Origin: Klebsiella phage Magnus
DNA: 64,000 bases
Strand: one strand, 5' to 3'
Sequence record: NC_049462.1
The position numbers and the translations under genes were made by a program. Below are positions 2,022 to 62,089 of the stretch, piece after piece. The notes below the pieces were generated by a model, which ran no database searches, was not told the origin of the DNA, and saw nothing but the letters and a program-made list of their open reading frames with translations. Positions within the stretch are counted from its first letter, which is position 1. The number at the start of each line of letters is the position of its first letter.

Positions 2022-2507
2022 TTGAAAAGGTGGGAATATTTTATGGAAGTTAACAACACTCAATATCAAACGATGTCTATAGAGGACATCATGGCTGAAC
2101 TGGATCCACTGATTACGGTTGATCCGGCTGATCGTAATTTAGATCAGATTTCGTTGAAGATCGGGCGTTCCTTTATGACAGTGCAGCGGCATTACATTCG
2201 TGAAGGGCGTTATCTGGAATACCTGACTGGGCGGTTTAAACAGATTGATGTTTATCTGCGCAGGTATTATGCCGGGGAATTACCTGCGCAATCGTATCGC
2301 GAACGCCCTCTCAACAACAAACCACTGAAAACTGATCTGCCTCTATGGGTTCAGGCCGACGATATGTATATCGAGATGTCCGGGCTTCTACAAGAACAGA
2401 AAGCGAAGGTGAAATTCATCGAAAGTTGTTTGGATCGTTTGAACAAGCTGGGTTATGAAGTGAAGAATGCCATAGATTGGAGAAAATACATGGATGGCGG
2501 TTACTAA
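2022..2507 (+). CDS. Hypothetical protein.
   Basis: ORF; its stop overlaps the next gene's start (TAATG). Confidence 0.4.
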   Translation: MKRWEYFMEVNNTQYQTMSIEDIMAELDPLITVDPADRNLDQISLKIGRSFMTVQRHYIREGRYLEYLTGRFKQIDVYLRRYYAGELPAQSYRERPLNNKPLKTDLPLWVQADDMYIEMSGLLQEQKAKVKFIESCLDRLNKLGYEVKNAIDWRKYMDGGY

Positions 2508-9085: not shown

Positions 9086-9108
9086 ACAGAGGCTATAATG
9101 GCCTCTGT
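9086..9108 (+). terminator. Hairpin with loop TATAATG followed by a T-run (terminator with an embedded -10-like hexamer).
   Basis: acagaggc-TATAATG-gcctctgt tttcg. TTCAAT lies 13 nt upstream of TATAAT. The hairpin ends 26 nt before the ATG at 9134. Confidence 0.6.
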
Positions 9109-10363: not shown

Positions 10364-10700
10364 GTTGGAAATTATTCAAGTTACGCAAAGCCACAGATGA
10401 ATTTCTACTGGAAGCTCGTATGCAAGGTCGTCTTGTGTACACGCCTTATCCAGGAACCACGCGCTTTTGCAATACGTTAAGAAAACAGAATTCTGTTTCT
10501 GGCCCTAGAAGATTGATGAACCAGGGAATGTTGGCATACAACTCTGGGGATACCCGGCCTTGTGACGGTGGGAAGATAATCTGAACCAATATGATACTGG
10601 AATAAAGTTTTCAATAACTGTAATCGGGGTATATTGACCTCACTTTAACGAAGCGCCTCAACCGGGGCGCACATTTGAACTGAAACAGGAAGACTATATC

Positions 10701-17521: not shown

Positions 17522-19720
17522 ATGATTGAATCATTAGAATTTAAGAATGCCACACAGACGGTTGCTCCTTCCAATCACGTCATCGTCGTTGACATTTCTT
17601 ATTCCATGTGCTATGCGCTGCCGAAACTGCGCCAGCACCTGAAAGAAAACCTGCCCTCTCTGGTTAAGCCGGAAGACACCATCAGTATTCTGTACTTCTC
17701 TTCTCGTGGCGACTTCGGTACTGTGTTCGCTGGGCGCCAGGTCAGAAACGCATCTGACCTGAGTGAGCTGGGCAAACTGATCGATCGCTTCCTGCAACCG
17801 ACGGGCTGCACCGGATTTGTTGAGCCGCTCAAGCTGGCTATCGAAACCGCCAACGATCTGAAAAAGTCCGGCGTCATCAATTCCCTGGTGTTCATGACCG
17901 ACGGCTATGACAACTGCTGGCGTTCCAGTGAAATCCTGGCCGTTGCTGAGCAGCTGCCAAAAGCATACGACAACATCACCCTGATCGAATACGGCTGGAA
18001 CTGCAACCGCGAACTGCTGCAGAAAATGGCTGAGTGCTCTGGTGCAACCCATGTATTCGCCGAAGGCCAGGAAGAATATCAGACCGAACTGGAAACAGCG
18101 ATGGTTTCTGTCGCTCCGCGCGTTCGCGTTGATTTCAGCGTCATCTATTCCTATGCCGTTTATATCGAAAACGGGATTCCGACCATCCTGGCCGCCCAGT
18201 CTGATGAAGACCATCCTATCAATTACGTCAACATCCCTGAGAGCGTCTCTAAGCTGTGGGTTGTTGATCCTGATATGATCGACCAACTGGATAACCTGGC
18301 GGACGTTGAAGCGGCATATGTGCTGGCTCTCTTTGGCGTGCATACTATGGATGCCGACCTGGTGTGGGCCGCGCTGAAAAAGACTGGCGATGTGCGCTTC
18401 ATTAAACAGTACACCAACTGCTTCACCAAGCAGGATTATTCCAACATCAAAACTGACATTACAGCAGCGATTGTAGACCCGGCGCTGCGCGGTGTGGACG
18501 GTATCGATTACAATCTGGTGCCGCCGGAAGACGCAACTACTGTTGTTGATGTTCTGACTTACCTGGCGGGAGCAGACGCACAACTGGTTGTTGACCATCC
18601 CCTGTTCTCTTACAAGCGGATCGGTCGCGGTACGGTACAAAAAGCCGACGATACCGAAGACAAGCTGGCGGCAGAAATTGCCGAAGCCAAATCTAAAGAA
18701 GAGCGTAAAGCGCTGGCCCTGAAACTGGCTGAACACGAAGACTGGACTCCTGTGTTTGAGCCAGTGAAAGGCGCGGGCGTTCCCATCAGCAATCTGGTTT
18801 ACAACTCCGCCCGCCCGAACATCAGTCTGCAGACTGTGCAAAACGGGACCGTCATCATTCCGAAGTTCGCCCAAAAGAAATACGATCTGCCGGAATCTAT
18901 TGACACATGGCAGTGGAAGAACTACACCATCGTCAAAGACGGTATCATCCATATGAAGACCCTTCCTGTGGTCTGCTCGGCTGAAACCGTATCTGAACTG
19001 GTTAGCAAAGGCGTTGAAGTTTACGGCGGGCCGGAAGTGTTCATCGTAAATCTGGGCAGCGTTCCTCTGGTTAACCGCGCGATGGTTAAGAACATCAGCG
19101 CCGCGCAGTTCTTTGCTGACCATGTCCGTCTGGAATCCCTGAAAGCCAAGCAGAAGGTTCTCAAATACTTCCGTGACGAACTGGTTGGGAAAGGTAATGC
19201 CGTGGGCCTGGCGGGCAAATACGGTGCCGAAGCGGCTGAGTTTCTGTCTGCGAATGGCATCCGCGATTACGGCTTCTCTCCGAAGACCGCTTCGGTTGAG
19301 TCTACTGATTTCTACATGAGCCGCGAACTCAATGTGAAGATCAAAGGCGCTTCCTCTCTGCCGTCAATTGCCGCCGTTCTGAAGAAACAGGCAGACAACA
19401 AAAAGCTGAACGCAGCTGATCAGCTGATCGCTAATGCGCTGGCAGAATACAACGCCTTTGTCAAATCTCCGGCGGTGACTGCAGTCCCGGAAGCAACGCA
19501 GGCCAAGATCATTGAATCTTGGATCAGTGACGCTGCCAAGGCCGCAATCACCCAAGTGCGTGAGCTGAACAAGACCCTGTCCAAATCCCTGTATGCCATC
19601 GTTGCTGGCCATGGCTGGTTCACCGACCTGGATCTGGAAGAGTCCACCATGGAAGTGGAAGTTGACGGTGTGAAATACACCGTCAGCGCAGTGCTGGAAG
19701 AGAAAGAGATCAAAATCTAA
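17522..19720 (+). CDS. von Willebrand factor A (vWA) domain protein, 732 aa.
   Basis: MIDAS residues: VVDISYSM (DxSxS) ... PTGCTG ... FMTDGYDN. High-GC codon usage. Long C-terminal region of unknown function. Confidence 0.65.
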   Translation: MIESLEFKNATQTVAPSNHVIVVDISYSMCYALPKLRQHLKENLPSLVKPEDTISILYFSSRGDFGTVFAGRQVRNASDLSELGKLIDRFLQPTGCTGFVEPLKLAIETANDLKKSGVINSLVFMTDGYDNCWRSSEILAVAEQLPKAYDNITLIEYGWNCNRELLQKMAECSGATHVFAEGQEEYQTELETAMVSVAPRVRVDFSVIYSYAVYIENGIPTILAAQSDEDHPINYVNIPESVSKLWVVDPDMIDQLDNLADVEAAYVLALFGVHTMDADLVWAALKKTGDVRFIKQYTNCFTKQDYSNIKTDITAAIVDPALRGVDGIDYNLVPPEDATTVVDVLTYLAGADAQLVVDHPLFSYKRIGRGTVQKADDTEDKLAAEIAEAKSKEERKALALKLAEHEDWTPVFEPVKGAGVPISNLVYNSARPNISLQTVQNGTVIIPKFAQKKYDLPESIDTWQWKNYTIVKDGIIHMKTLPVVCSAETVSELVSKGVEVYGGPEVFIVNLGSVPLVNRAMVKNISAAQFFADHVRLESLKAKQKVLKYFRDELVGKGNAVGLAGKYGAEAAEFLSANGIRDYGFSPKTASVESTDFYMSRELNVKIKGASSLPSIAAVLKKQADNKKLNAADQLIANALAEYNAFVKSPAVTAVPEATQAKIIESWISDAAKAAITQVRELNKTLSKSLYAIVAGHGWFTDLDLEESTMEVEVDGVKYTVSAVLEEKEIKI

Positions 19721-19764
19721 TCAACTGTGCCGGGGAAACCCGGCCTTTTCATAAGGTATACCAA

Positions 19765-20088
19765 ATGTCTAAGAATGTGTCTTATATCGATGTCATGCGC
19801 TTCCTTGTCCAGTATGCAAGCGACAATCTGAATATGGAACTGTGGCGTGAGAAGAAACACTCCGTAACAATACAATCCGCGATTGAAAAAATCGAAGACC
19901 AGCTGGATACCCTGGCTCCTCTGCGCGTCAAAGAACATCTGGGTGGCGATGAACTTGACGCGATAGAAATCATCATGGAACTGGAAGAAGAATATGATGT
20001 AGAGATCACGGATCATTGGATCGGGTCTCACCAAGACGACCCAACCCTGGGTGAATTGGCTGAACACGTGGTTCACCTATTAAAATAA
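19765..20088 (+). CDS. Acyl carrier protein-like protein with the phosphopantetheinyl-Ser replaced by Glu.
   Basis: HLGGDELDAIEIIMELEEEYDVEI aligns with E. coli ACP [24 protein letters not shown]. The DSL serine position is E. Confidence 0.65.
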   Translation: MSKNVSYIDVMRFLVQYASDNLNMELWREKKHSVTIQSAIEKIEDQLDTLAPLRVKEHLGGDELDAIEIIMELEEEYDVEITDHWIGSHQDDPTLGELAEHVVHLLK

Positions 20089-20099
20089 TTTTGAAGTTG

Positions 20100-20160
20100 G
20101 CTTTACTTCTTCAATAAATGATTTAATATTAATTTTGTAGGGCGGGAACGGCTCCCGCCT
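20100..20160 (+). promoter_or_regulatory. Promoter-like box plus stem-loop (PeSL-like element).
   Basis: gCTTTACTtCTTCAATAAAtgatttaatattaat followed by the hairpin ggcgggaacggctcccgcc. It sits 20-80 nt upstream of the 20182 ATG. Confidence 0.45.
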
Positions 20161-20181
20161 GATTGAAGAAGGTGCTATATT

Positions 20182-20397
20182 ATGGCTATATCACAAATTG
20201 TCGACCTCACCCCGTTTTGCCTCAACAATATTTCAAATCCTAAATTAGTCTTGTACAAGGACCCAACTAATTTTTGTTGGTTAGCAAGCTGCGACACCCA
20301 CAACGGAAGGCGTGCTGTTTGGGATTTCCCCGCGACCGATGAGGGGCGCATACTTGCTATACGCAAATTGGAATCAGAAAATTCTAAACGCGGGTGA
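20182..20397 (+). CDS. Hypothetical small protein.
   Basis: ORF, SD GAAGGTG. Confidence 0.35.
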   Translation: MAISQIVDLTPFCLNNISNPKLVLYKDPTNFCWLASCDTHNGRRAVWDFPATDEGRILAIRKLESENSKRG

Positions 20398-20639
20398 TGG
20401 ATATGTCGAATAAGAAAGTCGAAACCACGGTTGAAATTGAAAAGAATTGGGGTTTCCTGCGTGCTAAAGGTTTCCGCCGTGTGTATGCTGCGAAGGAAGT
20501 CTACGTCCAGCGTAAGGACGTTATCATTAGCAAGAAGGGTAAGTCCTGGGTGGCCGAAGAAGTGGACGAAGACGGCATCGTAGGCAAGATTAAGGCCAAG
20601 GCTGAAATCCTCTTCGCTCTTCTGAAGCAAATCAATTAA
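20397..20639 (+). CDS. Hypothetical small protein.
   Basis: ORF coupled to the upstream stop; basic. Confidence 0.35.
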   Translation: MDMSNKKVETTVEIEKNWGFLRAKGFRRVYAAKEVYVQRKDVIISKKGKSWVAEEVDEDGIVGKIKAKAEILFALLKQIN

Positions 20640-20651
20640 AATCAATAACAC

Positions 20652-20674
20652 GGGCGGGGTATGATTGCCCCGTC
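20652..20674 (+). terminator. Hairpin terminator with a TATGAT-containing loop.
   Basis: cgggcgggg-tatgattg-ccccgtc followed by tatttg. Confidence 0.5.
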
Positions 20675-20698
20675 TATTTGAAACGCAGGATTCATATC

Positions 20699-21067
20699 AT
20701 GAAAAAGTTAATCATCGCCTTGTCTCTGGTGTCTCTTTCTTTCGCCGCCCATGCTGATCGTGTGGTAAAAGGCATCTCGTTTGACGGGAAATATTCCTTC
20801 CAGGCGTTTGGTGCCGACCTGGTATTGACCCAAGGTAAAAAGACCGTTTATCGTTGCAAATACGATGAAACGATCCGTGGGATAGATAAGGCCAATGACC
20901 CGTATATTCTGGATATTTACCAGTGTGGTCAAAAAACCCTGGGCGTAAAAACTTTCGGTCGAATTGAAGACGGCGGATGGGTAACGGTTTTGGCAACTGT
21001 CAATAACAAAACTGTGGAAGTTTTCCAGAAACCGTTCAATATTTACACTGAGGCGAATTCATTATGA
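20699..21067 (+). CDS. Secreted protein with signal peptide (ATG at 20699).
   Basis: MKKLIIALSLVSLSFAAHA signal peptide. Four Cys residues. Confidence 0.5.
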   Translation: MKKLIIALSLVSLSFAAHADRVVKGISFDGKYSFQAFGADLVLTQGKKTVYRCKYDETIRGIDKANDPYILDIYQCGQKTLGVKTFGRIEDGGWVTVLATVNNKTVEVFQKPFNIYTEANSL

Positions 21068-21363
21068 TCAAGAACCCAAGTATTCATGATGCGGTGACAA
21101 ATATTGTCAGAAGGGAATTTGATTGTCTAAGGGTTCCGGCTCGGCGTATTACTCGCTTATTGGAGGCGAAAGTCGCCATTGAAGAAGGTGATACTAAATC
21201 TGCAATGTTGTCGATGTTGGAAGTGATTGTCCGGTTGTCTGATGATGACAATGTTAAATCTGTAGACGATCTAACAAAACTTCTAAACACAACAATTCAG
21301 GTTCGTTTAGATACAGGACCATTCACCTTACGTGAACTGATCAAAGAAGGGGTTGGAAAATGA
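21064..21363 (+). CDS. Hypothetical protein.
   Basis: ORF coupled to the upstream gene. Confidence 0.35.
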   Translation: MIKNPSIHDAVTNIVRREFDCLRVPARRITRLLEAKVAIEEGDTKSAMLSMLEVIVRLSDDDNVKSVDDLTKLLNTTIQVRLDTGPFTLRELIKEGVGK

Positions 21364-21536
21364 TTATTAATTGGGAATTAGTCGGCTTGGTGCTCAGCAT
21401 TATTTTCGGCTTGGTGGGTGTAATTTGGGTAATCATTGGCATCTGGTTCTATCGTTTCTTCACCAAATATGAGAAACGCGATGCTGAACGCCGGGCGCGT
21501 CAGGATGATATTCGAAATCGCCGGGAGAACTGGTGA
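21360..21536 (+). CDS. Small membrane protein (58 aa). Not in the ORF track because it is under 60 aa.
   Basis: ATG overlaps the upstream stop (AATGA). One TM segment LVGLVLSIIFGLVGVIWVIIGIWFY, then a basic tail. Confidence 0.4.
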   Translation: MIINWELVGLVLSIIFGLVGVIWVIIGIWFYRFFTKYEKRDAERRARQDDIRNRRENW

Positions 21537-21649
21537 TGGAAGAAAATGTCTGGCATGTCATTGGCGGCAATCTTCTGGGTATTCTGATCGTCTGGTTCTG
21601 TTATTGGTTTGGTGGCAAACTGGCTAAATTTTTCCACGGGCGTGACTAA
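21536..21649 (+). CDS. Small membrane protein (37 aa).
   Basis: ATG overlaps the upstream stop (TGATG). TM segment VIGGNLLGILIVWFCYWFGG. Confidence 0.3.
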   Translation: MEENVWHVIGGNLLGILIVWFCYWFGGKLAKFFHGRD

Positions 21650-21681
21650 CTAAGGGATAACTCCATATCCCGAGGTGTGCC

Positions 21682-22131
21682 ATGTTTCTGACTTCCTTTA
21701 TCGACTGGATGAATATCATCAATGGCCTGAGGATTCCTGTGGGAAACCTCGGGCTTTCTCGTTCTTCTATGCCACAAATTGACGCTGATAAACAGCAAGA
21801 CTTTCATGATTATCTGGAAGACAACGGCGTCACTATCGATGCATCTCAAGTTCCGATCCGGTCATTGCGTCTGACCCAGAACGAAATCAACAAAATGAAA
21901 GTCTGGAAGATAATGAAACAGATCCGAAACAAGAAGCCGATGGGCCGGGTTTGGGTGTCGTCAGACAATTACGTCGTGGATGGTTCTCATCGGTTCGTCG
22001 CCGCTCTGAATATGGATGGGAAGCAGCGCATGAAGGTCTACAAAGTTGATATGCCTGCCATGGAATTTGTCAAATTAGCTCGACAATTCAATGGTGTGCG
22101 CTACCGGACAGTTTCAGATAATCGATTCTGA
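21682..22131 (+). CDS. ParB/Srx-like nuclease domain protein.
   Basis: VVDGSHRFVAAL matches the ParB N-terminal domain core (DGhHRxxAa). Preceded by an IRSLRLTQNEI segment. Confidence 0.5.
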   Translation: MFLTSFIDWMNIINGLRIPVGNLGLSRSSMPQIDADKQQDFHDYLEDNGVTIDASQVPIRSLRLTQNEINKMKVWKIMKQIRNKKPMGRVWVSSDNYVVDGSHRFVAALNMDGKQRMKVYKVDMPAMEFVKLARQFNGVRYRTVSDNRF

Positions 22132-22209
22132 ATAAAGATTCTTATTGAATTCCTTTACTCAATAAACCTCCCGAACTACTATTTCCTCAATGAACAAGAG
22201 GGAATCACC

Positions 22210-22896
22210 ATGAAACGTTTAATCCTTGGGGTGCTGCTGGCTGGACTGGCGCTCCCCGCCGCTGCCAAACTGAACTCCACAGGTGAGAAACTGTGGGAAG
22301 ATCTTTCTTACTGTGCTGGATGGTCTCAGGCTGTCGCCATAGACAAGACTGGTTCTATCGAGAACTTTTCTGAATTGTGGAACACAGGCAACGTATCTGA
22401 CGCTGTTGTCAACGCCGGAATTGAATTTAATCGATACAAACAAGGAGCCTATAATCTTAAAGGCTACCTGAATGACGATAAATTCAACAAAGGTGGGATG
22501 GATGCCTCAGATTTGATCATGACCGGGCGTATGGGGACGGCAGGACGGATTCAGGTTAGACAATGCCGTTCTCTCCCCATCCCGGCGCTTCAGAAAGGTG
22601 TCAACATCGGGCGTCGCCATCTTGATCTCATTAATGATGGGAACCAGTGCGTCAAAGTATTTGAATACAGTGCCGATCAGATCAATGATCCTAAATTGAA
22701 GAAAGAATGGCGGACACGCGCTCTGGAACTTCGTGCTTGGCTGGTCGACAATGATCGTTATCATCAAGACCGGGTTGATGCCGGACTGAAAGATTTATCG
22801 ACCAATTTGTCTGTGAATCTGGATGACCCACGACTGTCCCGGGAACTTCAGCAGACTCGTATTGACTGTGAAAATATGATGAAGGAGAACGAATGA
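22210..22896 (+). CDS. Secreted protein with signal peptide.
   Basis: MKRLILGVLLAGLALPAAA signal peptide. SD GAGGGA. Confidence 0.5.
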   Translation: MKRLILGVLLAGLALPAAAKLNSTGEKLWEDLSYCAGWSQAVAIDKTGSIENFSELWNTGNVSDAVVNAGIEFNRYKQGAYNLKGYLNDDKFNKGGMDASDLIMTGRMGTAGRIQVRQCRSLPIPALQKGVNIGRRHLDLINDGNQCVKVFEYSADQINDPKLKKEWRTRALELRAWLVDNDRYHQDRVDAGLKDLSTNLSVNLDDPRLSRELQQTRIDCENMMKENE

Positions 22897-23240
22897 TGCG
22901 TGTGAAAAAGTCGACTATCATAATCTTCTACCTGGCATTCGTTGCAGTCTTTGTGGTCTGGGCAAGCAATGCGTTGGCAGTCCCGGCGAACAATCTGAAC
23001 AAATGCGCTGCATGGCTGTCAACGTATCAACAGTTCCATCCTGACGATAAAGATACTTCTATTTTGCTTTCCGATTTTGAAGGTGAAATGAAACGTTTGG
23101 ACCAGTACAGTACTGACCAGATTGAGAATGCTCTGGATTTACCAATGATGGATTCCGCAGCAGATAACAGTCACCAAACTGCTGTAGACCTGTCATATTG
23201 CCGTGAGATTGCGATTAACTTTACCCGTAATCAAAAATAA
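22893..23240 (+). CDS. Secreted/membrane-anchored small protein.
   Basis: N-terminal hydrophobic segment IIIFYLAFVAVFVVWASNALA. Coupled start. Confidence 0.45.
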   Translation: MMRVKKSTIIIFYLAFVAVFVVWASNALAVPANNLNKCAAWLSTYQQFHPDDKDTSILLSDFEGEMKRLDQYSTDQIENALDLPMMDSAADNSHQTAVDLSYCREIAINFTRNQK

Positions 23241-24034: not shown

Positions 24035-24057
24035 GGGGCGGTTATAATGACCGCCTC
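24035..24057 (+). terminator. Hairpin with loop TATAATG.
   Basis: ggggcggt-TATAATG-accgcctc ttt. It ends 22 nt before the ATG at 24079. Confidence 0.6.
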
Positions 24058-24078
24058 TTTGATTTGAAGGAATATATT

Positions 24079-24789
24079 ATGCACAATGTAACAAAACTCT
24101 ATCCGATCATTATCGGTGCCGATCAAGGGCACCTGCATTTATCTGAACCCTCATATATCGCCTATGCCCGCGCCGGGGGATCTCGATATGTATATTGTGA
24201 ACATGACCATGGGCGTGGTACAGGCCTCCTTCACTATACGGTGAACGACACTACAATGGTCCCTCTGGCCCCAGAAGACGTCGTGTTGGCCCGGCGCATT
24301 TACATTGAATTTAATGCAATGCACAACAACGAAATAGACGCTCGTTATCATGCCATGCGTTCTATGGAGGGGCGAGATTGTATTTATCGTATTGATCATT
24401 TTTCTGAATTTAGCCAGTCTATAGATTGGTTCATTTCTGACAAGATCTTGGGTGAAAGGATCATCACAACTCCTTGGGCACATGCCGAACAACTTCGTGT
24501 CTCCACAGACGCATACAAAGAAGTTGATACCCTGTGCAACAAATTCCGCATTTCTGTAACCTGCAACCAGGACCTGGGTGAAGAGATCCAATGGAAAGCA
24601 CAGTCCCCACATTTTAGTGATATGGAAATGTGGGCTGAAACCCGTTCCCGTGCTGTTGTTCAATTAGTTCTGTGGGCATTCTACCAGCGTACCCCATTCT
24701 CTTACATGGGGCAGAAAACGATTGATGAAATTCTGAAATCTCATAAAGTCGAGATTGTTGAAGATTTAATGGGTTGGAGCGCATTATGA
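24079..24789 (+). CDS. Hypothetical protein.
   Basis: ORF; SD GAAGGA 7 nt upstream. Confidence 0.4.
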   Translation: MHNVTKLYPIIIGADQGHLHLSEPSYIAYARAGGSRYVYCEHDHGRGTGLLHYTVNDTTMVPLAPEDVVLARRIYIEFNAMHNNEIDARYHAMRSMEGRDCIYRIDHFSEFSQSIDWFISDKILGERIITTPWAHAEQLRVSTDAYKEVDTLCNKFRISVTCNQDLGEEIQWKAQSPHFSDMEMWAETRSRAVVQLVLWAFYQRTPFSYMGQKTIDEILKSHKVEIVEDLMGWSAL

Positions 24790-25679: not shown

Positions 25680-25796
25680 TTTATTGGGAATCGGCAAATA
25701 AGTGCTTTATTCAATAATTTTTGTTAGGTAAGCTGTAATCCTCTTGTAGTGAACACAGAAGTAAACGTTTAACATAAACCAACTGGAGTAATCCGA

Positions 25797-35423: not shown

Positions 35424-35435
35424 AATAATTCAATA

Positions 35436-35455
35436 AAAGGGGCTTCGGCCCCTTT
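35436..35455 (+). terminator. Rho-independent terminator.
   Basis: aaaggggc-ttcg-gcccctttt. Confidence 0.7.
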
Positions 35456-35870: not shown

Positions 35871-35890
35871 AAGGGGCTATAATGCCCCTT
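35871..35890 (+). terminator. Hairpin with loop TATAAT.
   Basis: aaggggc-TATAAT-gcccctt tcctttcg. Confidence 0.6.
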
Positions 35891-39757: not shown

Positions 39758-39818
39758 TCTATAGACCCCTCTGATAATATAATTGCCCATTATTTGTCAA
39801 CTATGGATAAAGATAAAG

Positions 39819-40427
39819 ATGGGCAAGATCTTCGTTCCAACTCATTTAGAAGGCTGTCAGATTTCAGCCAAATATCTTCACAAGCAGATGAATTGCGGTG
39901 CCGTATTTGTCGAACCGAATCCTCATACCAATTCTGAATCCCCTGATGCAATCGGTTTCCGCCCCGATGGGTGTAGTATTTTGATCGAGGTCAAAGTCAG
40001 CAGGGATGATTTCCGAGCAGATGCCAAGAAGCCTCATCGCATCAATCCTGAGCAGGGGATGGGCAGCTATCGTTTTTATGCATGTCCTGAGGGAGTCATC
40101 CGGATCGAAGATCTACCACCAAAGTGGGGGTTGTTCTATTTCACGCCTCGAAAATCATTGAAGGCTATCCATGTCCCCGACGTGCAGATATCTTCCCTGT
40201 ATTCCCCTCAGCACTATCTGAATATGATAGCCCGCCGAAGCCCGAATGGCAAGATGCCTCCTTATCTCCTCCATTATCAAAAGATGGTGGAAGACTTCGG
40301 CCATGTCGTAAAGAATACCGTCGCTGAACACAATATCCTCTATGGGGCTTGGCGCCAGCTCTGTATTGCTCAAACCCGTGGTGTGGCGTATACTGTCAAT
40401 GAGGTATTCCAGAGGCCAAACATATGA
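39819..40427 (+). CDS. PD-(D/E)XK nuclease-like protein.
   Basis: DAIGFRPDGCSILIEVKVSRDD (D...E-x-K). Confidence 0.4.
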   Translation: MGKIFVPTHLEGCQISAKYLHKQMNCGAVFVEPNPHTNSESPDAIGFRPDGCSILIEVKVSRDDFRADAKKPHRINPEQGMGSYRFYACPEGVIRIEDLPPKWGLFYFTPRKSLKAIHVPDVQISSLYSPQHYLNMIARRSPNGKMPPYLLHYQKMVEDFGHVVKNTVAEHNILYGAWRQLCIAQTRGVAYTVNEVFQRPNI

Positions 40428-41095
40428 ACTATAAAAGGATACACGACTCCATAATTTCCAGGGCGGTTAATCGGTCACTGCCTTCGGGTTACACAGAGAA
40501 ACATCATATCATTCCTCTTTCCATGGGTGGTAAAGATAGGAAATTTAATATGGTGGTTTTGACAGCGTCAGAACATTATATTGTGCATATGTTGTTGGCT
40601 AAGATGTTTGGTGAAGTTATGAACAAAGCATTTACCAAAATGAAACATCTTACATCCAATCCATCCAATAACAAGGAGTTTTCATTAAGAAGGGAAATGT
40701 TATGCACTATTTCTGGAAACAACGCTAAAACTGAAAGAAACAGAAAGGCTCATTCTGATAAAATAAAAGGCCGAAAACATACAGAAATTACGAAGAAATC
40801 TATTTCGGATTCTATGAAAGGGGTTAATAACCCAATGAAGGGGACCAGTCCTTGGAGAAATCCGACTAATATAAAACGGGGTTCTCATAAAAATTGGTTG
40901 ATAGCGGATAAAATATACGACAAATGGTGTAATAACAAATCTGTTAGAGTCATAGATTTACTCAATGGAAACGATATGCAGACTTCGTATACGACAGTTA
41001 CAACTATGAAATTGAAATTCGAAGCTGGCTGGGTTCCTAAAGAAGACGAAGATTGGATTGTCTTTGTCAAGGAGAACAAACGTGAAATTTCTTGA
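40424..41095 (+). mobile_element. Free-standing HNH homing endonuclease with NUMOD3-like DNA-binding repeats.
   Basis: HNH core EKHHIIPLSMGG...NMVVLTASEHYIVH. Repeats GRKHTEITKKSISDSMKG / NNPMKG (NUMOD3-like). AT-rich. Its 3' end overlaps the primase start. Confidence 0.75.
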
Positions 41096-42146
41096 TGAAC
41101 AATTTATCAATTATCTTGCCCCGAGATTGGAAAAATTTGTCTGGGAAAGAACTGGTTCCGTTGCGAAATTTCGTTGTCCCCTATGCGGCGATTCTCAAAA
41201 ACACGCCAGCAAACGTCGAGGACATTTCTTCTATGACCATGATGAAGATGTGTTTAGATTTAAATGTTTCAATTGCAATGAGATGAGCGGTTGGGCTTTT
41301 GAGTTCTGGTTGAAGAAATTTGATGACCGTCTGTACAGCGAGTACAGCATGGAGAAGTTTAAGGTCATGGGGGATACCCGCGCCCGCCCGGTACAGAAAC
41401 TGGCACCCTTGAAGAAACTGACACAGACGGCGCGTATCGGTCAACAAGTGGCGAAGCGGGATGAGGACCACCTCGGCAATATGATCCGACTAGATCTTCT
41501 TGACCCAACACATTTTGCTCGCCAATATGTGGAAGGCAGGGGAATGCCGGAGAGCGCTCTCTCTTTGTTGTATTTCAGCGAGAACTTTAGAAAAGATCTT
41601 CTTGATTTTGAAACTGACTCAGAGAAACAGAAGAAGATCCCTGATGACCCGAGATTGGTTATCCCCTTCTGGACTCAAGATGGTCGGATGAAGATTGTTC
41701 AGGGGCGCGCATTTGGTGATAACCTTCCAGAAGGGATGTTGCGGTATGCAACTGTCAAACCGCGAAACGAGGACACGAAGGTCTATGGCGAAGAACGCAT
41801 TTTGATGAACCGGGTGAAGTTAGTGGTTGAAGGGCCGCTGGATAGTCTCTTCTTACCAAATTGCTTGGCGACGGCAGATGCTGATCTATTGAGCGCCAAG
41901 GGGGACATCTATGTGCCTGACAACCAATATAGAAACCCGCAGGTCTGTGATGGCATCCAGAAAATGATTGACAAAGGCGTGAAGGTTGTTTTGTTCCCGC
42001 CAGAGATACATTGGAAGGATATCAACGATATGGTGAACCCTAGAAAGGGGAATATCCCGATACGTGACCTTCTGAAAATTATGGCCGACAATGTCTACCA
42101 GGGACTTGCGGCTTCCTTACGATTTGCCGATTTGAGGAAAGTGTGA
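41082..42146 (+). CDS. 61: DNA primase gp61-like (GTG start at 41082; the ORF track's TTG alternative is at 41058).
   Basis: Zinc ribbon FRCPLCGDSQKHASKRRGHFFYDHDEDVFRFKCFNCN aligns with T4 gp61 FRCPVCGDSKTDQNKARGWYYGDNNEGNIHCYNCN. Toprim VVEGPLDSL. Confidence 0.85.
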   Translation: MKFLDEQFINYLAPRLEKFVWERTGSVAKFRCPLCGDSQKHASKRRGHFFYDHDEDVFRFKCFNCNEMSGWAFEFWLKKFDDRLYSEYSMEKFKVMGDTRARPVQKLAPLKKLTQTARIGQQVAKRDEDHLGNMIRLDLLDPTHFARQYVEGRGMPESALSLLYFSENFRKDLLDFETDSEKQKKIPDDPRLVIPFWTQDGRMKIVQGRAFGDNLPEGMLRYATVKPRNEDTKVYGEERILMNRVKLVVEGPLDSLFLPNCLATADADLLSAKGDIYVPDNQYRNPQVCDGIQKMIDKGVKVVLFPPEIHWKDINDMVNPRKGNIPIRDLLKIMADNVYQGLAASLRFADLRKV

Positions 42147-42358
42147 TGGACATGAAAGAACTTGACAAGATGGATGACCAAGAGATCCTCCGGGGATACC
42201 AGCAAGCCCGAGCCGGGTATGTCCTCAGTGGGCATGAGTCGAAGAGTTTTGTTCACGGATGGCGTAATGGCATAGTTGATTCCGGGGCGTGTCAGCCTGA
42301 TGCTGATCAGATGGATACGGCAAGAAACTATCTGAAGCAACTACGCGAACAAAAATAA
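42146..42358 (+). CDS. Hypothetical small protein.
   Basis: Coupled TGATG overlap with primase. Confidence 0.35.
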   Translation: MDMKELDKMDDQEILRGYQQARAGYVLSGHESKSFVHGWRNGIVDSGACQPDADQMDTARNYLKQLREQK

Positions 42359-42436
42359 TTCTTCCCTCCAGGCCTCGTAGATAGAGGCCTCGTAAAATAA
42401 TTCAAAAATATTTTAAATTTTTATTGAAAAAGACTT

Positions 42437-42493
42437 TACTCTTCAATAAAGCTGGCCTATTATAGTTCACATAGGGCGGTAAACAACACCCCG
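42437..42493 (+). promoter_or_regulatory. Promoter-like box plus stem-loop (PeSL-like element), near-identical to the box at 20100.
   Basis: aCTTTACTCTTCAATAAAgctggccTATTAT followed by the hairpin agggcgg-taaacaacac-cccgcc. Preceded by two copies of the palindrome GAGGCCTC (42367-42390). Confidence 0.45.
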
Positions 42494-42538
42494 CCGAATG
42501 AAAAGTGAAAAGCACCAACTACATAATGAGGATTTAAC

Positions 42539-43027
42539 ATGAAAACTATCAAAACCATCATCACCAACGGCTCTGTATCTTTCGAACTGAACACCGAAGT
42601 TTCCAAAGCAGAAATGTTCCGCATTGCACAGGAAGCCGGTTTCCAGGGCGGTAAGACCTCCTTCATGAACCTGCTGAGCGGCAAAACTGAAACTGCTTGC
42701 GGCTTCACCATGAAAGACCAGATTGTGGTTGACCAGGCGGTAGTGGCTAAATCCTCTGACAAAGTCAGCATGCTGAAAATGTTTGGCCTGAACATCCACA
42801 TCGTCGAAGCGAAGACCGAAACCTACGGCACCCTGAACGTCGGCAAAGGCCGGGTGCAGCTGAACCCGCTGAACAACGGAACCTACTCGGTGATGGTATT
42901 CCCGAAAAAAGGCTACGACAACACAGATATCCTGAAAGCGGTCGGTGGTGATTCTAAATCTCAGTATGTCAAAATGGGCAAACTGACTCTGATCGAAGTA
43001 CAGAACATGATCGAGCGCCTGGCATAA
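42539..43027 (+). CDS. Hypothetical protein, probably abundantly expressed.
   Basis: Strong SD GAGGA at optimal spacing, high-GC codon usage, and flanking promoter-like and terminator elements. N-terminus MKTIKTIIT. Confidence 0.5.
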   Translation: MKTIKTIITNGSVSFELNTEVSKAEMFRIAQEAGFQGGKTSFMNLLSGKTETACGFTMKDQIVVDQAVVAKSSDKVSMLKMFGLNIHIVEAKTETYGTLNVGKGRVQLNPLNNGTYSVMVFPKKGYDNTDILKAVGGDSKSQYVKMGKLTLIEVQNMIERLA

Positions 43028-43079
43028 GTCGCTGAGGGGGAGGAAACTCCCCCATCCTGGAAAGATGAGGAATAAATCG

Positions 43080-43382
43080 ATGAATAAATTCAGCAGCACA
43101 GAAGCGACTAAGATTGCGGAAGAAACCGCACAATTACTGGCTTCACATACTTTAAAAAATTGGCAGATAGATACATGTTCCTTCTCCCAAATTGTCCTTT
43201 CTTGTGGGGATGTGTATGTTCAGCATCTACTCCCCACGAGATCTTGGCTTGCTGGTTTTAGAGAATATGACGACAATATTACCAGCGATTATGTTGATTC
43301 TGCAATAATGGCATACGAAGGTTTAAAGGCTGCTGTTGCAGAGTCCATTGACGAGTTGAAAGAAATTTACGACAATATGTAA
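43080..43382 (+). CDS. Hypothetical protein.
   Basis: ORF (an alternative ATG lies at 43065). Confidence 0.4.
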   Translation: MNKFSSTEATKIAEETAQLLASHTLKNWQIDTCSFSQIVLSCGDVYVQHLLPTRSWLAGFREYDDNITSDYVDSAIMAYEGLKAAVAESIDELKEIYDNM

Positions 43383-43451
43383 CGGAATTTCCTCGAGTGT
43401 AATTCACTTTCACTTTAAATACCTCTGCAAACATTGCGGAGGTATTTTCTT

Positions 43452-44246
43452 ATGGCCATTTTAAAGATTGGCAGCAAAGGTCTGGAAGTTAAGAATCTTC
43501 AGACCAGTCTCAACAAAATCGGGTTCAATCTGGTTGCCGATGGCATATTTGGTAAAGCGACTGACAACGCCGTCAGGGCAGTTCAGGCGGGTGCCGGACT
43601 CGTCGTTGATGGTATTGCTGGCCCCAAGACCATGTATGCTATACGCAACGCAGGGGAGTCTCATCAGGATCATCTGACTGAGGCTGACTTGATTGACGCT
43701 GCTCGTGAATTGTCTGTTGACCTTGCTAGCATCAAGGCAGTCAACCAAGTAGAATCGCGCGGTACTGGCTTCACCAAGTCTGGAAAGATTAAGACATTGT
43801 TTGAACGCCACATCATGTACAAAAAGCTGAATGCCAAGTTCGGTCAGGCAAAAGCCAATGCTCTGGCCCAGCTTTACCCGACGTTGGTTAACGCCAAAGC
43901 CGGGGGATACACAGGTGGAGACGCGGAGTTGGAACGACTCCATGGTGCAATAGCGATCGATAAAGATTGCGCCTACGAGAGCGCTTCCTACGGGTTATTC
44001 CAGATCATGGGGTTCAACTGTGTTATCTGCGGGTACGCAAATGCTGAGCAGATGTTCAACGACTTTCTCACTGGTGAACGTGCTCAGCTCATGGCATTTG
44101 TCAAGTTCATCAAGGCTGACGCCAATCTGTGGAAAGCATTGAAGGACAAGAATTGGGCTGAGTTTGCTCGGCGTTACAATGGCCCGGCGTATGCACAGAA
44201 CCAGTACGACACCAAGCTGGCTGCAGCATACAAATCATTCAGTTAG
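43452..44246 (+). CDS. Modular endolysin: N-terminal peptidoglycan-binding domain plus C-terminal N-acetylmuramidase (DUF3380-type), like Gp110 of Salmonella phage 10.
   Basis: PG_binding_1-like LQTSLNKIGFNLVADGIFGKATDNAVRAVQ...GIAGPKT. C-terminal GLFQIMGFN and the remaining muramidase region. Confidence 0.75.
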   Translation: MAILKIGSKGLEVKNLQTSLNKIGFNLVADGIFGKATDNAVRAVQAGAGLVVDGIAGPKTMYAIRNAGESHQDHLTEADLIDAARELSVDLASIKAVNQVESRGTGFTKSGKIKTLFERHIMYKKLNAKFGQAKANALAQLYPTLVNAKAGGYTGGDAELERLHGAIAIDKDCAYESASYGLFQIMGFNCVICGYANAEQMFNDFLTGERAQLMAFVKFIKADANLWKALKDKNWAEFARRYNGPAYAQNQYDTKLAAAYKSFS

Positions 44247-44250
44247 TCGA

Positions 44251-44272
44251 AGGCCGGAAACGGCCTTTTTCT
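44251..44272 (+). terminator. Rho-independent terminator.
   Basis: aggccg-gaaa-cggcct ttttcttt. Confidence 0.75.
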
Positions 44273-44352
44273 TTATCTATGACAGAGTTATGCTGGGCGC
44301 GTCGCTTAATTAAAGGTGATGAGATAACCCCTGTAGAAATAGGAAGGTTCAC

Positions 44353-45195
44353 ATGCAATCTGCGAGCAAAGTAGTATCCATGAAGCCAGCTGGTAAAACC
44401 AAATCAGCGCGCAAGAAAGAAGTAACCCAGCGCGAAGACGAATGGATGAAGTTCTCTAAAGGTGATTTCAAAATCGCTCCATTCCATGGCCTCTCTGACA
44501 ACCAGAATCTTGCCTACCAATCTGCCCTTGAAAACAATCTGACCATCACAATCGGACCTGCTGGTACGGGCAAATCATATTGCGGTGCTGCCGCTGCTAT
44601 CAAACATCTTATTGATCGCCGTGTCAGTAAAATCATCATCTCTCGTTCGCCGTTGCCAACCGGACAGACTGCGGGGTTCCGCCCCGGCGACACGTATGAA
44701 AAACTCGTTCCGTATCTGCGCCCGCTGATCGAAACCTTCAAGAAAGTGTTGAAGACCGATACTGGCAGCGACGGCTTCTTCAACTATCTGTGGGAGAAGC
44801 ACATCATCGAAATTCAGGATCTGGAGACGATCAAGGGTATGACCTTTGATGACGCCTTCCTGATTATCGAAGAGGCTCAGGAATGCGACATGGAGCAGCT
44901 GAAGAATCTTCTCACCCGTTCTTCTGACTCCACCTATGTGTTCGTCAACGGTGATATCAAGCAGTCGAACAAACGTCTGCGTGACAGCGCCCTTGACACG
45001 TATGTCAAAGCATTCCGTGACTTCAACCAGAAACTGAATGCCGGTACTCTGGCGGTCTATGGGGTAGAACCGGGGGACGCGTATCCTGAATGGGTTCAAC
45101 CTTTCAGTATCATCGAGTTCAACAAAGATGACCGTAACGGTCGCGGCAACTTTACCCGCCTGATGCTAGAGGTCAATGACCTGTACGACATTTAA
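44353..45195 (+). CDS. phoH: PhoH-like ATPase.
   Basis: Walker A GPAGTGKSY; Walker B LIIEEAQE. Typical PhoH length. Confidence 0.85.
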   Translation: MQSASKVVSMKPAGKTKSARKKEVTQREDEWMKFSKGDFKIAPFHGLSDNQNLAYQSALENNLTITIGPAGTGKSYCGAAAAIKHLIDRRVSKIIISRSPLPTGQTAGFRPGDTYEKLVPYLRPLIETFKKVLKTDTGSDGFFNYLWEKHIIEIQDLETIKGMTFDDAFLIIEEAQECDMEQLKNLLTRSSDSTYVFVNGDIKQSNKRLRDSALDTYVKAFRDFNQKLNAGTLAVYGVEPGDAYPEWVQPFSIIEFNKDDRNGRGNFTRLMLEVNDLYDI

Positions 45196-48983: not shown

Positions 48984-49010
48984 AAGCCCCCAAAAGGGGG
49001 CTTTACTTTT
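48984..49010 (+). terminator. Rho-independent terminator.
   Basis: aagccccc-aaaa-gggggctt tacttttg. Confidence 0.75.
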
Positions 49011-49069
49011 GAAAAAGCCAGACCTATACTTCCTGTACATACCAAATATTGAATAGCAGGAACTACATC

Positions 49070-53245: not shown

Positions 53246-53290
53246 AATGTATCTCCACGGTATAATGTAGTCTTTTAATTAGGGGGATTT

Positions 53291-53872
53291 ATGGGTAGAA
53301 ACACTGATGGTATTGTTTGTGGAGTAGGAATAAATGATTCACAACAGAAGATTAGTGACATGCCGTCTGGGGTTCAAGTATACAACCGTTGGCGTCAAAT
53401 GATTTATCGTTGTTATGACCCAGAATATCTGAAATCTTCACCAACATATGCGGGGTGTTGGGTTTGTGAAGAGTGGCTAAGTTTTACAAATTTTTATCGT
53501 TGGTATATTAGTCATTATATGGTAGGTTATCATCTTGACAAGGATCTTTTGATTCCTGGTAATAGATGTTATTCCCCGGAAACTTGTATCTTTATTCCTC
53601 AATGGTTGAACTCATTCACTATAAATCGTAGTTCTAAACGCGGTTTATACCCAGTTGGGGTTTGTAAATTTGGAAACCGTTATAAATCTTATTGTAATGA
53701 CCCTTTTACGGGAAAGCAACGATATATTGGGTATTTTTCTACGCCGGAAGATGCACATCAGGCTTGGTTAGAAACTAAATTAAAATATTCTAAAGAACTA
53801 AAATCTTACATGGATGCCATAGATACACGTTTGTACCCCAATGTGGTTGAAATTATAAAGAAAATGAAATAA
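53291..53872 (+). mobile_element. AP2-domain homing-endonuclease-like protein (free-standing, AT-rich island).
   Basis: N-region YNRWRQMIYRCYDP...GCWVCEEWLSFTNFYRW, typical of phage HNH/AP2 homing-endonuclease-like proteins. AP2-like YIGYFSTPEDAHQAW. Local drop in GC. Confidence 0.55.
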
Positions 53873-60985: not shown

Positions 60986-61122
60986 AGGGTTGTGAAGAAA
61001 GTTTGTTATCTGAACATTCTTTTTATAGAAAGTGGTTTACAATCTTCAAAACTACAGTATAGTTGAAAACAAGCGAAACGGCTTTGTCAGCCGACCGATT
61101 TACAACATATAGGATCTACACT

Positions 61123-62034
61123 ATGTCTTACATTCTCCATATTGAGTCCGGCCTGAAATTTGATATTGAAGGTAAAACTGCGTCTGACGTCCAGTCCGAA
61201 ATCAAAGACGCTGGTCTGCTGATCGGTAACGTAACCATCCGCCGTATGCTTGACGGCGTCCTGCAAAGTGCCAACGGGTTTGAGCTGATCGATTCCCTGT
61301 CTCAAGAAGAGCAGGAAGAAACCCTGGAGGCTCTCGACCGTGCGAAGGCCGAAGAAGTCCAGCCGACTGACGTTGCTGGCGTGAAAGAAGGCGCTGGCGC
61401 TGCCACTCCGGTTATTGACGCCAAAGAAACCGTTGACCAGCCGGAAGCGGAACAAACTGCAAACTCCGAAGAATCTACGGAAACTGCTGAACAGGCTGAC
61501 CCGCAGGAAGTAGAAGCTGTGGCAAACGCAGATGAAGTCCGCCGCCGTATCCTGGGCACTAACGTGGCAGAAGCGCTGGCCGAAGGTGGCAATGCCGCCG
61601 AAGACGCTTCCCTGGCCGCGAAATCTAAGCTGACCAACCTGACCCCGGCAGTTGCGCCGGAAGATCGCAAACGTCGCCATAACAAACGCGAAGAAATGGT
61701 TGAAGCCGCACGTTCTTCCAATTTCGGCGCGATCCTGGCAGCAGTAGAAGCAGGCGTCATTCCGGGTGTTTACCTGAGCTATGTCAATCCGGATATGCGC
61801 TGGTTCCAGTTCCCGGTCACCGACCTGGCTGATAAAGAAAACCCGCATGCGCGGACTAACACCTACGTCGATCTGGCGCCGATCACTTCCGGCGGCTGGG
61901 GTTTCAGTCTGTACGTGAAAGGTAAATCTTTCACCAAACGCCAGAAAATCAAAGAGACCGATGCGGAATCTCTGGTTAAAGCGATCAATGAATGGTTGCC
62001 GGGCGCTCTGGAAGAAGCCAAAAACGCAGGCTGA
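61123..62034 (+). CDS. Hypothetical acidic Ala/Glu-rich protein (ATG at 61123).
   Basis: High-GC, low-complexity acidic middle region (EEVQPTDVAGVKEGAGAATPV...). Could be scaffold or internal-protein-like. Confidence 0.4.
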   Translation: MSYILHIESGLKFDIEGKTASDVQSEIKDAGLLIGNVTIRRMLDGVLQSANGFELIDSLSQEEQEETLEALDRAKAEEVQPTDVAGVKEGAGAATPVIDAKETVDQPEAEQTANSEESTETAEQADPQEVEAVANADEVRRRILGTNVAEALAEGGNAAEDASLAAKSKLTNLTPAVAPEDRKRRHNKREEMVEAARSSNFGAILAAVEAGVIPGVYLSYVNPDMRWFQFPVTDLADKENPHARTNTYVDLAPITSGGWGFSLYVKGKSFTKRQKIKETDAESLVKAINEWLPGALEEAKNAG

Positions 62035-62062: not shown

Positions 62063-62089
62063 AAGGGGCTGCTATAATAGCAGCCTCTT
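62063..62089 (+). terminator. Hairpin with loop TATAATA.
   Basis: aaggggctgc-TATAATA-gcagcctctt ttg. TTCAAT lies 15 nt upstream of TATAAT. Ends 20 nt before the ATG at 62109. Confidence 0.6.

Follow-up and report, generated by a model that had tools for sequence, protein, structure and literature searches.

Conserved, probable early promoters of the sigma-70 type, some with leader stem-loops, in Klebsiella phage Magnus and its relatives

The two near-identical boxes described in this study lie in a stretch of 64,000 nt from Klebsiella phage Magnus (NC_049462.1), the whole of which was analyzed and is called the window. They are likely to be the -35 hexamer and spacer of conserved early promoters of the host sigma-70 type that carry stem-loops in their leaders, in cassettes that are fixed in position and occasionally recombinogenic. 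Rather than being a private duplication, the 17-mer that the boxes share is the core of a family of putative promoters, of which the window has 5-6 members and a whole genome 9-10. Their consensus extends from the -35 through spacer, -10 and start region as far as the SD.

With megablast against phage genomes, the stretches 19000-23000 and 41500-44500 match Klebsiella phages Madison, Menlow, May, Trex_ER12 and others at 93-99% identity, and match more than 200 phages of Salmonella, Escherichia, Serratia and Dickeya more weakly. The closest relative is Klebsiella phage Madison (98.7% identity), and the annotated relatives are classified in the Ackermannviridae, genus Taipeivirus. These matches place the window among the Taipeivirus-like Klebsiella phages of the Ackermannviridae, in the ViI group. 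Genome-wide counts were made in the complete genomes of Madison (157,834 bp) and of the Kuttervirus CBA120, site 2 was compared with 18 IMG/VR loci that encode relatives of its 162-aa protein (protein identity from 100% down to 69%), and gene content was compared between the window and Madison, Menlow and IME250 over the first 50 kb.

The pattern CTTTACT-N(0-2)-TTCAATAAA has two matches in the window, at 20101-20118 and 42434-42450, both on the + strand, and none in 100 shuffles. A GC hairpin follows each match, so that the recurrence of box and stem-loop reported in a preliminary description is borne out, except that the second box begins at 42434 and not at 42437, 3 nt away. Each element was also said to precede a gene, the second of them with a strong ribosome-binding site, and this agrees with the ATG codons found at 20182 (71 aa) and 42539 (162 aa) and with an SD that ends 6 nt before the latter. 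The features of the two sites are as follows.

20102..20129, + strand: site 1 promoter core, with -35 TTTACT (20102-20107), a 16-nt spacer and -10 TAATAT (20124-20129); PWM score 41 bits
20110-20117, + strand: spacer word TTCAATAA of site 1
20137, + strand: G, predicted start of site 1
20140..20160, + strand: site 1 leader hairpin GGGCGGGA-ACGGC-UCCCGCCU, 8 bp including G-U, about -14 to -15 kcal/mol
20168-20173 and 20182-20397, + strand: SD GAAGGT and accessory ORF of 71 aa (phrog_22629), present in some relatives and absent from others
42370..42390, + strand: terminator-like hairpin AGGCCUC-7 nt-GAGGCCU closing the preceding unit, 45 nt away from the -35 of site 2
42393..42434, + strand: A/T-rich tract similar to an UP element, with TTATTGAAAAAGAC at its end ahead of the -35 of site 2, almost invariant across genera
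42435..42463, + strand: site 2 promoter core, with -35 TTTACT (42435-42440), a 17-nt spacer and -10 TATTAT (42458-42463)
42442-42449, + strand: spacer word TTCAATAA of site 2
42471, + strand: A, predicted start of site 2
42475..42495, + strand: site 2 leader hairpin GGCGG-11 nt-CCGCC, 5 bp, -8.4 kcal/mol
42528-42532 and 42539-43027, + strand: SD GAGGA and conserved gene for 162 aa (phrog_3764)

The exact 17/18-mer has just two copies in the whole Madison genome as well, an outcome that the preliminary description had named among those counting against it, but the relaxed motif makes up a family that is conserved in relatives. Scanning IMG/VR for CTTTACT-N0-2-TTCAATAA (15 specified bases) returned mostly unrelated contigs among the matches listed and is uninformative on distribution.

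Strict family sites of the form TTTACT-N16/17-TAHWHT number five in the window (-35 starts at 20102, 22154, 35453, 42435 and 49002) against 0.28 expected, and no shuffle reached five. Each of the five is read from the + strand and falls between + strand ORFs, its -35 placed 55-105 nt ahead of an ATG. A generic sigma-70 consensus scan was undiscriminating, as it found 44 and 32 sites where shuffled sequence had 32 and 31, and the family-specific pattern and a PWM were used in its place. The PWM was built from the Madison sites and is therefore circular for those of the window, but still shows a gap in score, with the five window sites at 29-41 bits and the next best site on either strand at 11, the level of shuffle noise. 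Madison has nine strict sites and a TTTACA variant, which gives 9-10 members, and CBA120 has the same promoter set at syntenic positions. The common promoter architecture that the preliminary description had hinted at is supported by this excess over expectation and by positions that are intergenic, co-oriented with the genes and conserved in other genera. Apart from sites 1 and 2, the members in the window are the following.

22154..22182, + strand: TTTACT-caataaacctcccgaac-TACTAT, before ATG 22210; PWM score 30 bits
35439..35481, + strand: TTTACT-N17-TATAAT, before ATG 35532; a terminator hairpin, GGGGC-uucg-GCCCC, abuts the -35
48984..49030, + strand: TTTACT-N17-TATACT, before ATG 49070; a terminator hairpin at 48984-49003 overlaps the -35
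61036..61063, + strand: variant TTTACA-N16-TATAGT, before ATG 61123; 5-bp leader hairpin, orthologue present in CBA120

The cassette consensus reads A/T-rich tract, (C/G)TTTACT, (tc)TTCAATAA, N6-8, TA(T/C)(A/T)(A/C)T, and that of the alignment reads A/T-rich, GG, TTTACT, TCTTCAATAAC, N, TATAnT, TCATTnCATAG and, further on, TGAAAnGAAGGAACTACATCATG. In pairwise identity the two flagged sites are no closer to each other than to other members of the family. No claim is made for gene conversion between sites 1 and 2, as the pairwise identities do not single out the pair, and the TAGGGCGG that both contain is partly explained by the start-region consensus (A/G)TAG of the family together with GC-rich stems. 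The -10 of site 1 is weak or ambiguous in the window (the candidates are TAATAT, AATATT and TATTAA, with spacers of 16, 17 and 19 nt respectively), and Menlow has a cleaner TTTACT-N17-TATTAT at this position. At site 2, the A/T tract that ends in GAAAAAGAC just before the -35 may be an UP element, for which the UP-element consensus of E. coli is the yardstick.

The promoter of site 1 is conserved in the Taipeivirus relatives (L025-L029) and also in Kuttervirus. In 19 orthologous loci from several genera, site 2 shows no variation in its -35 and -10, in TTCAATAA and the start region, or in most of its leader. The intergenic region (182 nt) has a mean column identity of 91% across the 19 loci, against 72-80% identity for the flanking coding DNA in distant loci, and it is more strongly constrained than the genes to either side of it. 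An upstream ORF in the site 2 leader, beginning ATGAAAAGTGAA, was considered as a coding uORF and rejected, as it has no SD and a 2-nt indel shifts its frame between genera. Searches of PHROGs, Pfam and PDB sequences with the genes behind the promoters returned only families of unknown function. The products of early genes usually belong to families without known function.

Host sigma-70 RNA polymerase would use these roughly ten promoters per genome straight after infection, with transcription beginning at the purine 7-8 nt after the -10 (G 20137 and A 42471), and the early units would open with small genes of families without assigned function. The hexamers are 16-17 nt apart, the position is intergenic and co-oriented with the genes, and it is conserved in relatives, all of which is as expected of sigma-70 promoters. 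The sites are assigned to sigma-70 and to the early class because the hexamers and their spacing fit sigma-70, and because the form matches, and the family consensus equals, the TTTACW-N17-TAYWAT of the T4/PST early promoters that lie inside PeSLs (promoter-early stem-loops; PMC2839356; PMC4122927). Use by sigma-70, early timing and start sites are predictions inferred from the DNA, since a search of the literature for Ackermannviridae transcriptomes, start-site maps or expression data found none.

The early promoters of T4, which are used by the host sigma-70 holoenzyme, likewise combine a -35 of the TTTAC(A/T) type, in place of TTGACA, with a TAnnAT -10 across a spacer of 17 nt; the DNA upstream of them is A/T-rich, conservation extends past the hexamers, and small genes of unknown function stand behind them. 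Specific to the ViI-like group, however, are the conserved TTCAATAA in the spacer and TCAAT-N-CATAAGCAG in the start region. A further difference is that Alt, ModA and AsiA/MotA act on the early promoters of T4, whereas homologues are unreported in ViI-like phages. Eight probable sigma-70 promoters were given in the CBA120 paper, in which early promoters were held to be unidentifiable by informatics, and earlier genome papers on ViI-like phages give about eight putative sigma-70 promoters. The putative early promoters in the supplement to the AG3 genome include two sites of this family, among them the orthologue of site 2 (Porf100), in a different register; "TTttacttcttcaataactcacgTATAAT" is also on that list. 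That register (-35 TTGAAA, -10 AATAAT) was rejected for site 2, as the window has AATAAA, without the final T, and TTTACT and TATTAT are invariant in all loci.

The two flagged hairpins are best read as stem-loops of the 5' leader and not as terminators, since neither is followed by a U-run (the tails are TGATTGAAG at site 1 and GAATGAAAAG at site 2) and the stems begin 3-5 nt past the predicted start. Both begin 11-12 nt after the -10, and terminator consensus scans of the window regions listed neither of them. The stem at site 2 had been described as GGGCGG/CCCGCC, which cannot pair in that register; the true stem is GGCGG/CCGCC, of 5 bp. Between the predicted start and the stem there are three unpaired nt at site 1 and four at site 2, or none at site 2 with an optional outer helix, CAU/AUG, of 3 bp (42470-42472 with 42498-42500). 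If site 2 started at A 42469 instead, six unpaired nt would precede the stem, which is borderline for known protection by 5' stem-loops. The folding z-scores of the whole leaders are modest at both sites (about -1.5), and Rfam gave no match at gathering score in the window, the lone hit, near site 1, being at chance level (E = 0.66).

Across the 19 loci, the stems of the site 2 leader hairpin are invariant apart from one sequence, with a 4-nt indel and substitutions in the loop. In the terminator-like hairpin at 42370-42390 the stems do not vary but the loop varies throughout, and the loop of the window is the reverse complement of that in the closest relatives. No covariation was found in the hairpins of the site 2 region among these loci, a test that the invariant stems leave uninformative, and the site 1 hairpin of IME250 has a one-sided change from G-U to G-C. 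The leaders of the site 1 locus differ between lineages, and four hairpins without sequence relationship are found at one and the same place in them.

Taipeivirus site 1 leader: GGGCGGGA/UCCCGCCU
Det7 copy A leader: GCGGG/CCCGU
CBA120 and Det7 copy B leader: an interrupted 8-bp stem
Vi01 leader: a 9-bp stem, z = -3.8

That a hairpin is kept at this locus without likeness of sequence argues for a role of the RNA structure. A leader hairpin is present in only three of the ten family members (site 1, site 2 and 61036), however, which goes against the suggestion that this promoter architecture has stem-loops as its regular companions. In the remaining seven members the leader is essentially unstructured, with an MFE of about 0 to -2 kcal/mol and z above or near zero, and the hairpin is therefore dispensable for the working of the promoter. 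Its role is probably that of an mRNA stabilizer, in which 5'-terminal stem-loops would slow the 5'-end-dependent decay (RNase E/RppH) of early mRNAs. From the work of Belasco and co-workers on the 5'-end dependence of RNase E, the hairpin in the ompA 5' UTR reportedly protects its mRNA. There, as here, a stable hairpin stands a few nt from the 5' end and is followed by an unstructured ribosome-binding region, but the sequences are unrelated, and the start site in the phage is a predicted one.

The preliminary description likened the elements to PeSLs (Arbiol et al., 2010, PMC2839356; Comeau et al., 2014, PMC4122927), in which an A/T-rich tract and an early promoter are combined with a stem-loop that terminates transcription from upstream and with an SD and ATG. 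PeSLs are repeated in hyperplastic regions, adjoin indels and form mini-circles between copies; in T4/PST and nt-1 their stem-loop comes before the promoter, and in RB49 it falls between the hexamers or overlaps them (PMC2839356; PMC4122927). The evidence partly supports the likeness: the elements are PeSL-like in some respects, without being PeSLs unreservedly. Both sites hold an A/T tract, a promoter, a stable GC stem-loop, an SD and an ATG within ~100 nt, the A/T tract of site 1 overlapping the end of the ACP gene, and several copies are conserved over most of the element. In this they resemble the PeSLs of RB49/phi1, T4/PST and KVP40/nt-1, where A/T tract, promoter, GC stem-loop, SD and ATG likewise fall within ~100 nt and several copies occur. 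Their promoters have exactly the consensus of the T4/PST class, with which the members at 35453 and 49002 also share a stem-loop just upstream of the promoter. Placement as in published PeSLs is thus found at 35439-35452, at 48984-49003 and at Madison 61225, but at sites 1 and 2 the stem-loop is neither upstream of the hexamers nor between or over them; it lies after the -10, inside the transcript, and without a U-run. Further differences are that the present phages are Ackermannviridae and those with PeSLs Straboviridae, that the ~10 copies here have conserved syntenic positions, that most members have no leader hairpin, and that a significant excess of breakpoints at cassettes was not found in the comparisons made.

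It is accordingly necessary to weigh whether these could be true PeSLs, whose stem-loops terminate or attenuate transcription from upstream and whose composites drive gene shuffling, for instance through mini-circles between neighboring copies. This is thought unlikely. The stem-loops of RB49 PeSLs, of the form Gn-loop-Cn, terminated efficiently in a reporter assay, by which and not by consensus their activity was shown (PMC2839356; PMC4122927), and at site 1 there is no other hairpin from the stop codon of the ACP gene (20088) to the next gene. Layouts of the published type also exist in the family: the hairpins at 35439-35452 and 48984-49003 abut a -35, and at Madison 61225 the -35 and the spacer are bracketed by a stem. 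The flagged hairpins, however, would attenuate their own transcripts, as they follow the -10 and the predicted start; they have no U-runs and fail the terminator scan, and site 2 already has a separate terminator hairpin upstream. Moreover, the cassettes are syntenic across genera and not scattered, and there are only about 10 copies per genome.

As regards gene shuffling, relatives differ in what follows the site 1 promoter, a slot for which three alternatives occur. Menlow, May and CBA120 have no ORF there; the window, Madison, four other Klebsiella phages and ~24 Kuttervirus have the 71-aa ORF (ORF71; 30 records); and IME250, KWBSE43-6, 0507-KN2-1, Vi01 and others have an unrelated 81-aa ORF (68 records). 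In Menlow, ORF71 is removed from ATG to ATG, with the hairpin leader fused to the next gene, and the breakpoints at the slot are 20185/20409. In the stretch after the site 1 promoter, Det7 has a gene annotated as RNA polymerase ADP-ribosylase, and Vi01 has an endonuclease V gene.

The ORF71 homologue of Det7 is flanked by a 75-nt direct repeat of 95% identity, in which a terminator hairpin is joined to TTTACT-N17-TATTAT and TCAAT and which reaches roughly to the start site, whereas CBA120 has one copy of the cassette and no ORF at the same locus. This cassette-ORF-cassette arrangement against a single cassette is the shuffling pattern of the PeSLs of T4-like phages and favors their presence here, but the 71-aa ORF of the window has one cassette only. 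Copy A of Det7 has a hairpin related to that of site 1 and the same SD context (...tTGAAaAGAAGGTaCTATATTATG), and on the sequences compared the hairpin leader of site 1 goes with ORF71. The 71-aa ORF of Det7, with its terminator-promoter cassette between two conserved genes and its sporadic distribution (30 records), is also similar to phage morons. It differs from them in that the ORF of the window is without a second cassette and in that the flanks are homologous repeats of the resident promoter cassette, which points to homologous rather than illegitimate recombination.

Gene exchange is also seen behind the 35453 cassette, where the gene right after the ATG is replaced in Madison and Menlow (breakpoint 35536), the replacement running from the ATG to a hairpin with TATAAT in its loop (35871-35890). 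Gene content also differs widely among relatives over the 2 kb that separate the 20102 and 22154 cassettes, which again is in favor of true PeSLs. Breakpoints are, however, not enriched at cassettes. In the first 50 kb there are ~19 sites of break in gene content and ~75 gene junctions between the window and Madison, Menlow and IME250, and ATG breakpoints fall at two of the five cassettes (20185 and 35536) against about 1.3 expected, which is not significant. Most indels of the window are at ordinary gene boundaries or are insertions of homing endonucleases, and at site 2 the variable slot (43053-43401) is one gene further downstream and not at the cassette. The PeSL-like modular shuffling first proposed therefore stands in part, with the three contents of the site 1 slot and the 75-nt repeat of Det7 on its side, and the layout of the hairpins and the lack of breakpoint enrichment against it.

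What remains preferred is the reading of the boxes as parts of early promoters in resident cassettes. These cassettes are, to judge by their synteny in Taipeivirus and Kuttervirus at the scale examined, old and fixed in position, which is at odds with the mobility that had been suggested for the elements. We infer that at least one past event used a cassette as a recombination site, and the recurring ~75 nt of terminator and promoter may serve as homology for the insertion or exchange of accessory ORFs.

A more far-reaching proposal is that TTATTGAA and TTCAATAA are half-sites by which the early set is switched, and that the ~75-nt cassettes are portable homology which moves ORFs between Taipeivirus and Kuttervirus; taken together this seems quite improbable. 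About half of the promoters have TTATTGAA, the reverse complement of TTCAATAA, immediately before the -35, and in these the two words form an 8-bp inverted repeat centered on the -35. As operators, they would be half-sites for a DNA-binding protein of phage or host that shuts off or tunes the early promoter set, and this by itself is held to be very improbable. The repeat TTATTGAA-N12/13-TTCAATAA on the -35 is perfect at site 2, Madison 15021 and Madison 58455 and imperfect at 22154 and site 1, and that of site 2 hardly varies among the 19 loci, of which one alone (L013) departs from the rest, by a deletion of 1 nt between the half-sites. Six of the nine occurrences of TTCAATAA in the window are inside cassettes, and operators would supply a route of early shut-off in ViI-like phages, which are without homologues of AsiA, MotA, Alt and Mod. 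The upstream word is direct and not inverted, however, at 35429/35461, Madison 61225 and Madison 98599, the half-sites are 10 to 13 nt apart, with a 1-nt difference between orthologues, and half of the CBA120 promoters have no TTCAATAA in the spacer; TTATTGAA also fits an ordinary A-tract UP element. Finally, chance similarity, or recent local duplication of one intergenic segment without shared function, is scarcely credible even though the exact 17/18-mer has two copies per genome, being refuted by the family statistics (no matches of the motif in shuffles, and five sites of the relaxed family where 0.28 are expected) and by the conservation of both sites at their own positions in other genera, and sites 1 and 2 are no more alike than other pairs of the family.

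Early transcription in the ViI-like phages (Ackermannviridae) has been poorly described so far, and the extended consensus provides a testable list of predicted early start points, about ten per genome, that is conserved across genera, whilst also distinguishing two types of leader, one with a hairpin and the other unstructured. These findings do not overturn current understanding, and the leader hairpins would be part of ordinary phage regulation. The cassette-flanked ORFs known from T4-like phages have at least one counterpart in a second phage family. Several phages of this kind are used or have been proposed for therapy and biocontrol against Klebsiella, Salmonella, E. coli O157 and Dickeya, and the putative early units and the hot spots for accessory genes are therefore of practical value.

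The leader of the 162-aa gene behind site 2 (the promoter box with leader hairpin at 42434) spans 42464–42538, about 70 nt, and is almost invariant across genera, with near-invariant words that include GAATGAAAAGTGAAA, CCAACTACAT and ATGAGGA. The coding DNA flanking this leader on both sides is only 72–80% identical, and, judging by sequence, the constraint on the leader extends past the hairpin. The terminator hairpin that ends the unit upstream of the promoter has the form AGGCCTC-N7-GAGGCCT, with a 7-nt loop at 42377–42383 that reads gtagata in the window, whereas it reads tatctac in the closest relatives. As these are exact reverse complements of one another, this suggests that the loop has been inverted by recombination inside the inverted repeat. 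In more distant loci the AGGCCTC/GAGGCCT stems are invariant, and the loops are different again. The products of the first genes behind two of the promoters, 42539–43027 and 61123–62034, share weak N-terminal similarity (residues 31–62 vs. 28–59, 28% identity, E = 0.024 as a single comparison), for which chance may account.

Behind the site 1 promoter (box at 20101) lies a slot with three states, all of which occur in Taipeivirus and Kuttervirus alike: it is empty, it holds a 71-aa ORF (30 phage records), or it holds an 81-aa ORF that is unrelated to the first (68 records). Also located in the variable stretch behind this promoter is Det7 gene 48 (1857–2363 of the Det7 locus), annotated as an RNA polymerase ADP-ribosylase, which matches phrog_832 (E = 4e-16); none of the four window ORFs tested in the equivalent stretch gave a phrog_832 match. 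The CBA120 paper states that Alt/Mod-type enzymes are absent from ViI-like phages. The slot and other differences in gene content from close relatives are as follows.

Site 1 slot: window 20185–20408; Det7 locus 1080–1510; locus L157, from another relative, 895–1134
Homing-endonuclease gene insertion in Madison/Menlow: window 2499–2506
Homing-endonuclease gene insertion in Madison: window 44245–44316
Additional gene in Madison: window 39764–39818
ORF 40424–41095 missing from Menlow and IME250: window 40428–41082
607-nt segment present in the window and not in Madison: 53265–53871

Two further intergenic TTCAATAA sites in the window resemble degraded members of the predicted early promoter family, both scoring under the threshold of the PWM built from Madison sites.

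TTTTCA-ataactgtaatcgggg-TATATT: 10600–10645
TTTATT-caataatttttgttagg-TAAGCT: 25697–25735

A second class of hairpin in the window, with four members, carries TATAAT(A/G) in its loop and has a T-rich tail.

TATAAT-loop hairpin: 9086–9108
TATAAT-loop hairpin: 24037–24055
TATAAT-loop hairpin: 35871–35890, the right boundary of a gene replacement
TATAAT-loop hairpin: 62067–62085

TTCAAT or TTCAAA lies 13–15 nt 5' of TATAAT in three of the four. The layout is that of the RB49-type promoter-early stem-loop (PeSL), in which the loop of a terminator presents a −10-like box.

At a number of genes, whether or not a promoter is present, a GC hairpin stands directly 5' of a common context for ribosome binding, (T)GATT(T)GAAG(A)AGG-N8-ATG.

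Hairpin-adjoining ribosome-binding context: window 20161–20184
Hairpin-adjoining ribosome-binding context: window 24058–24083
Hairpin-adjoining ribosome-binding context: Madison 43975–43997

A hairpin followed by a Shine-Dalgarno sequence may be a general intercistronic module in phage Magnus.
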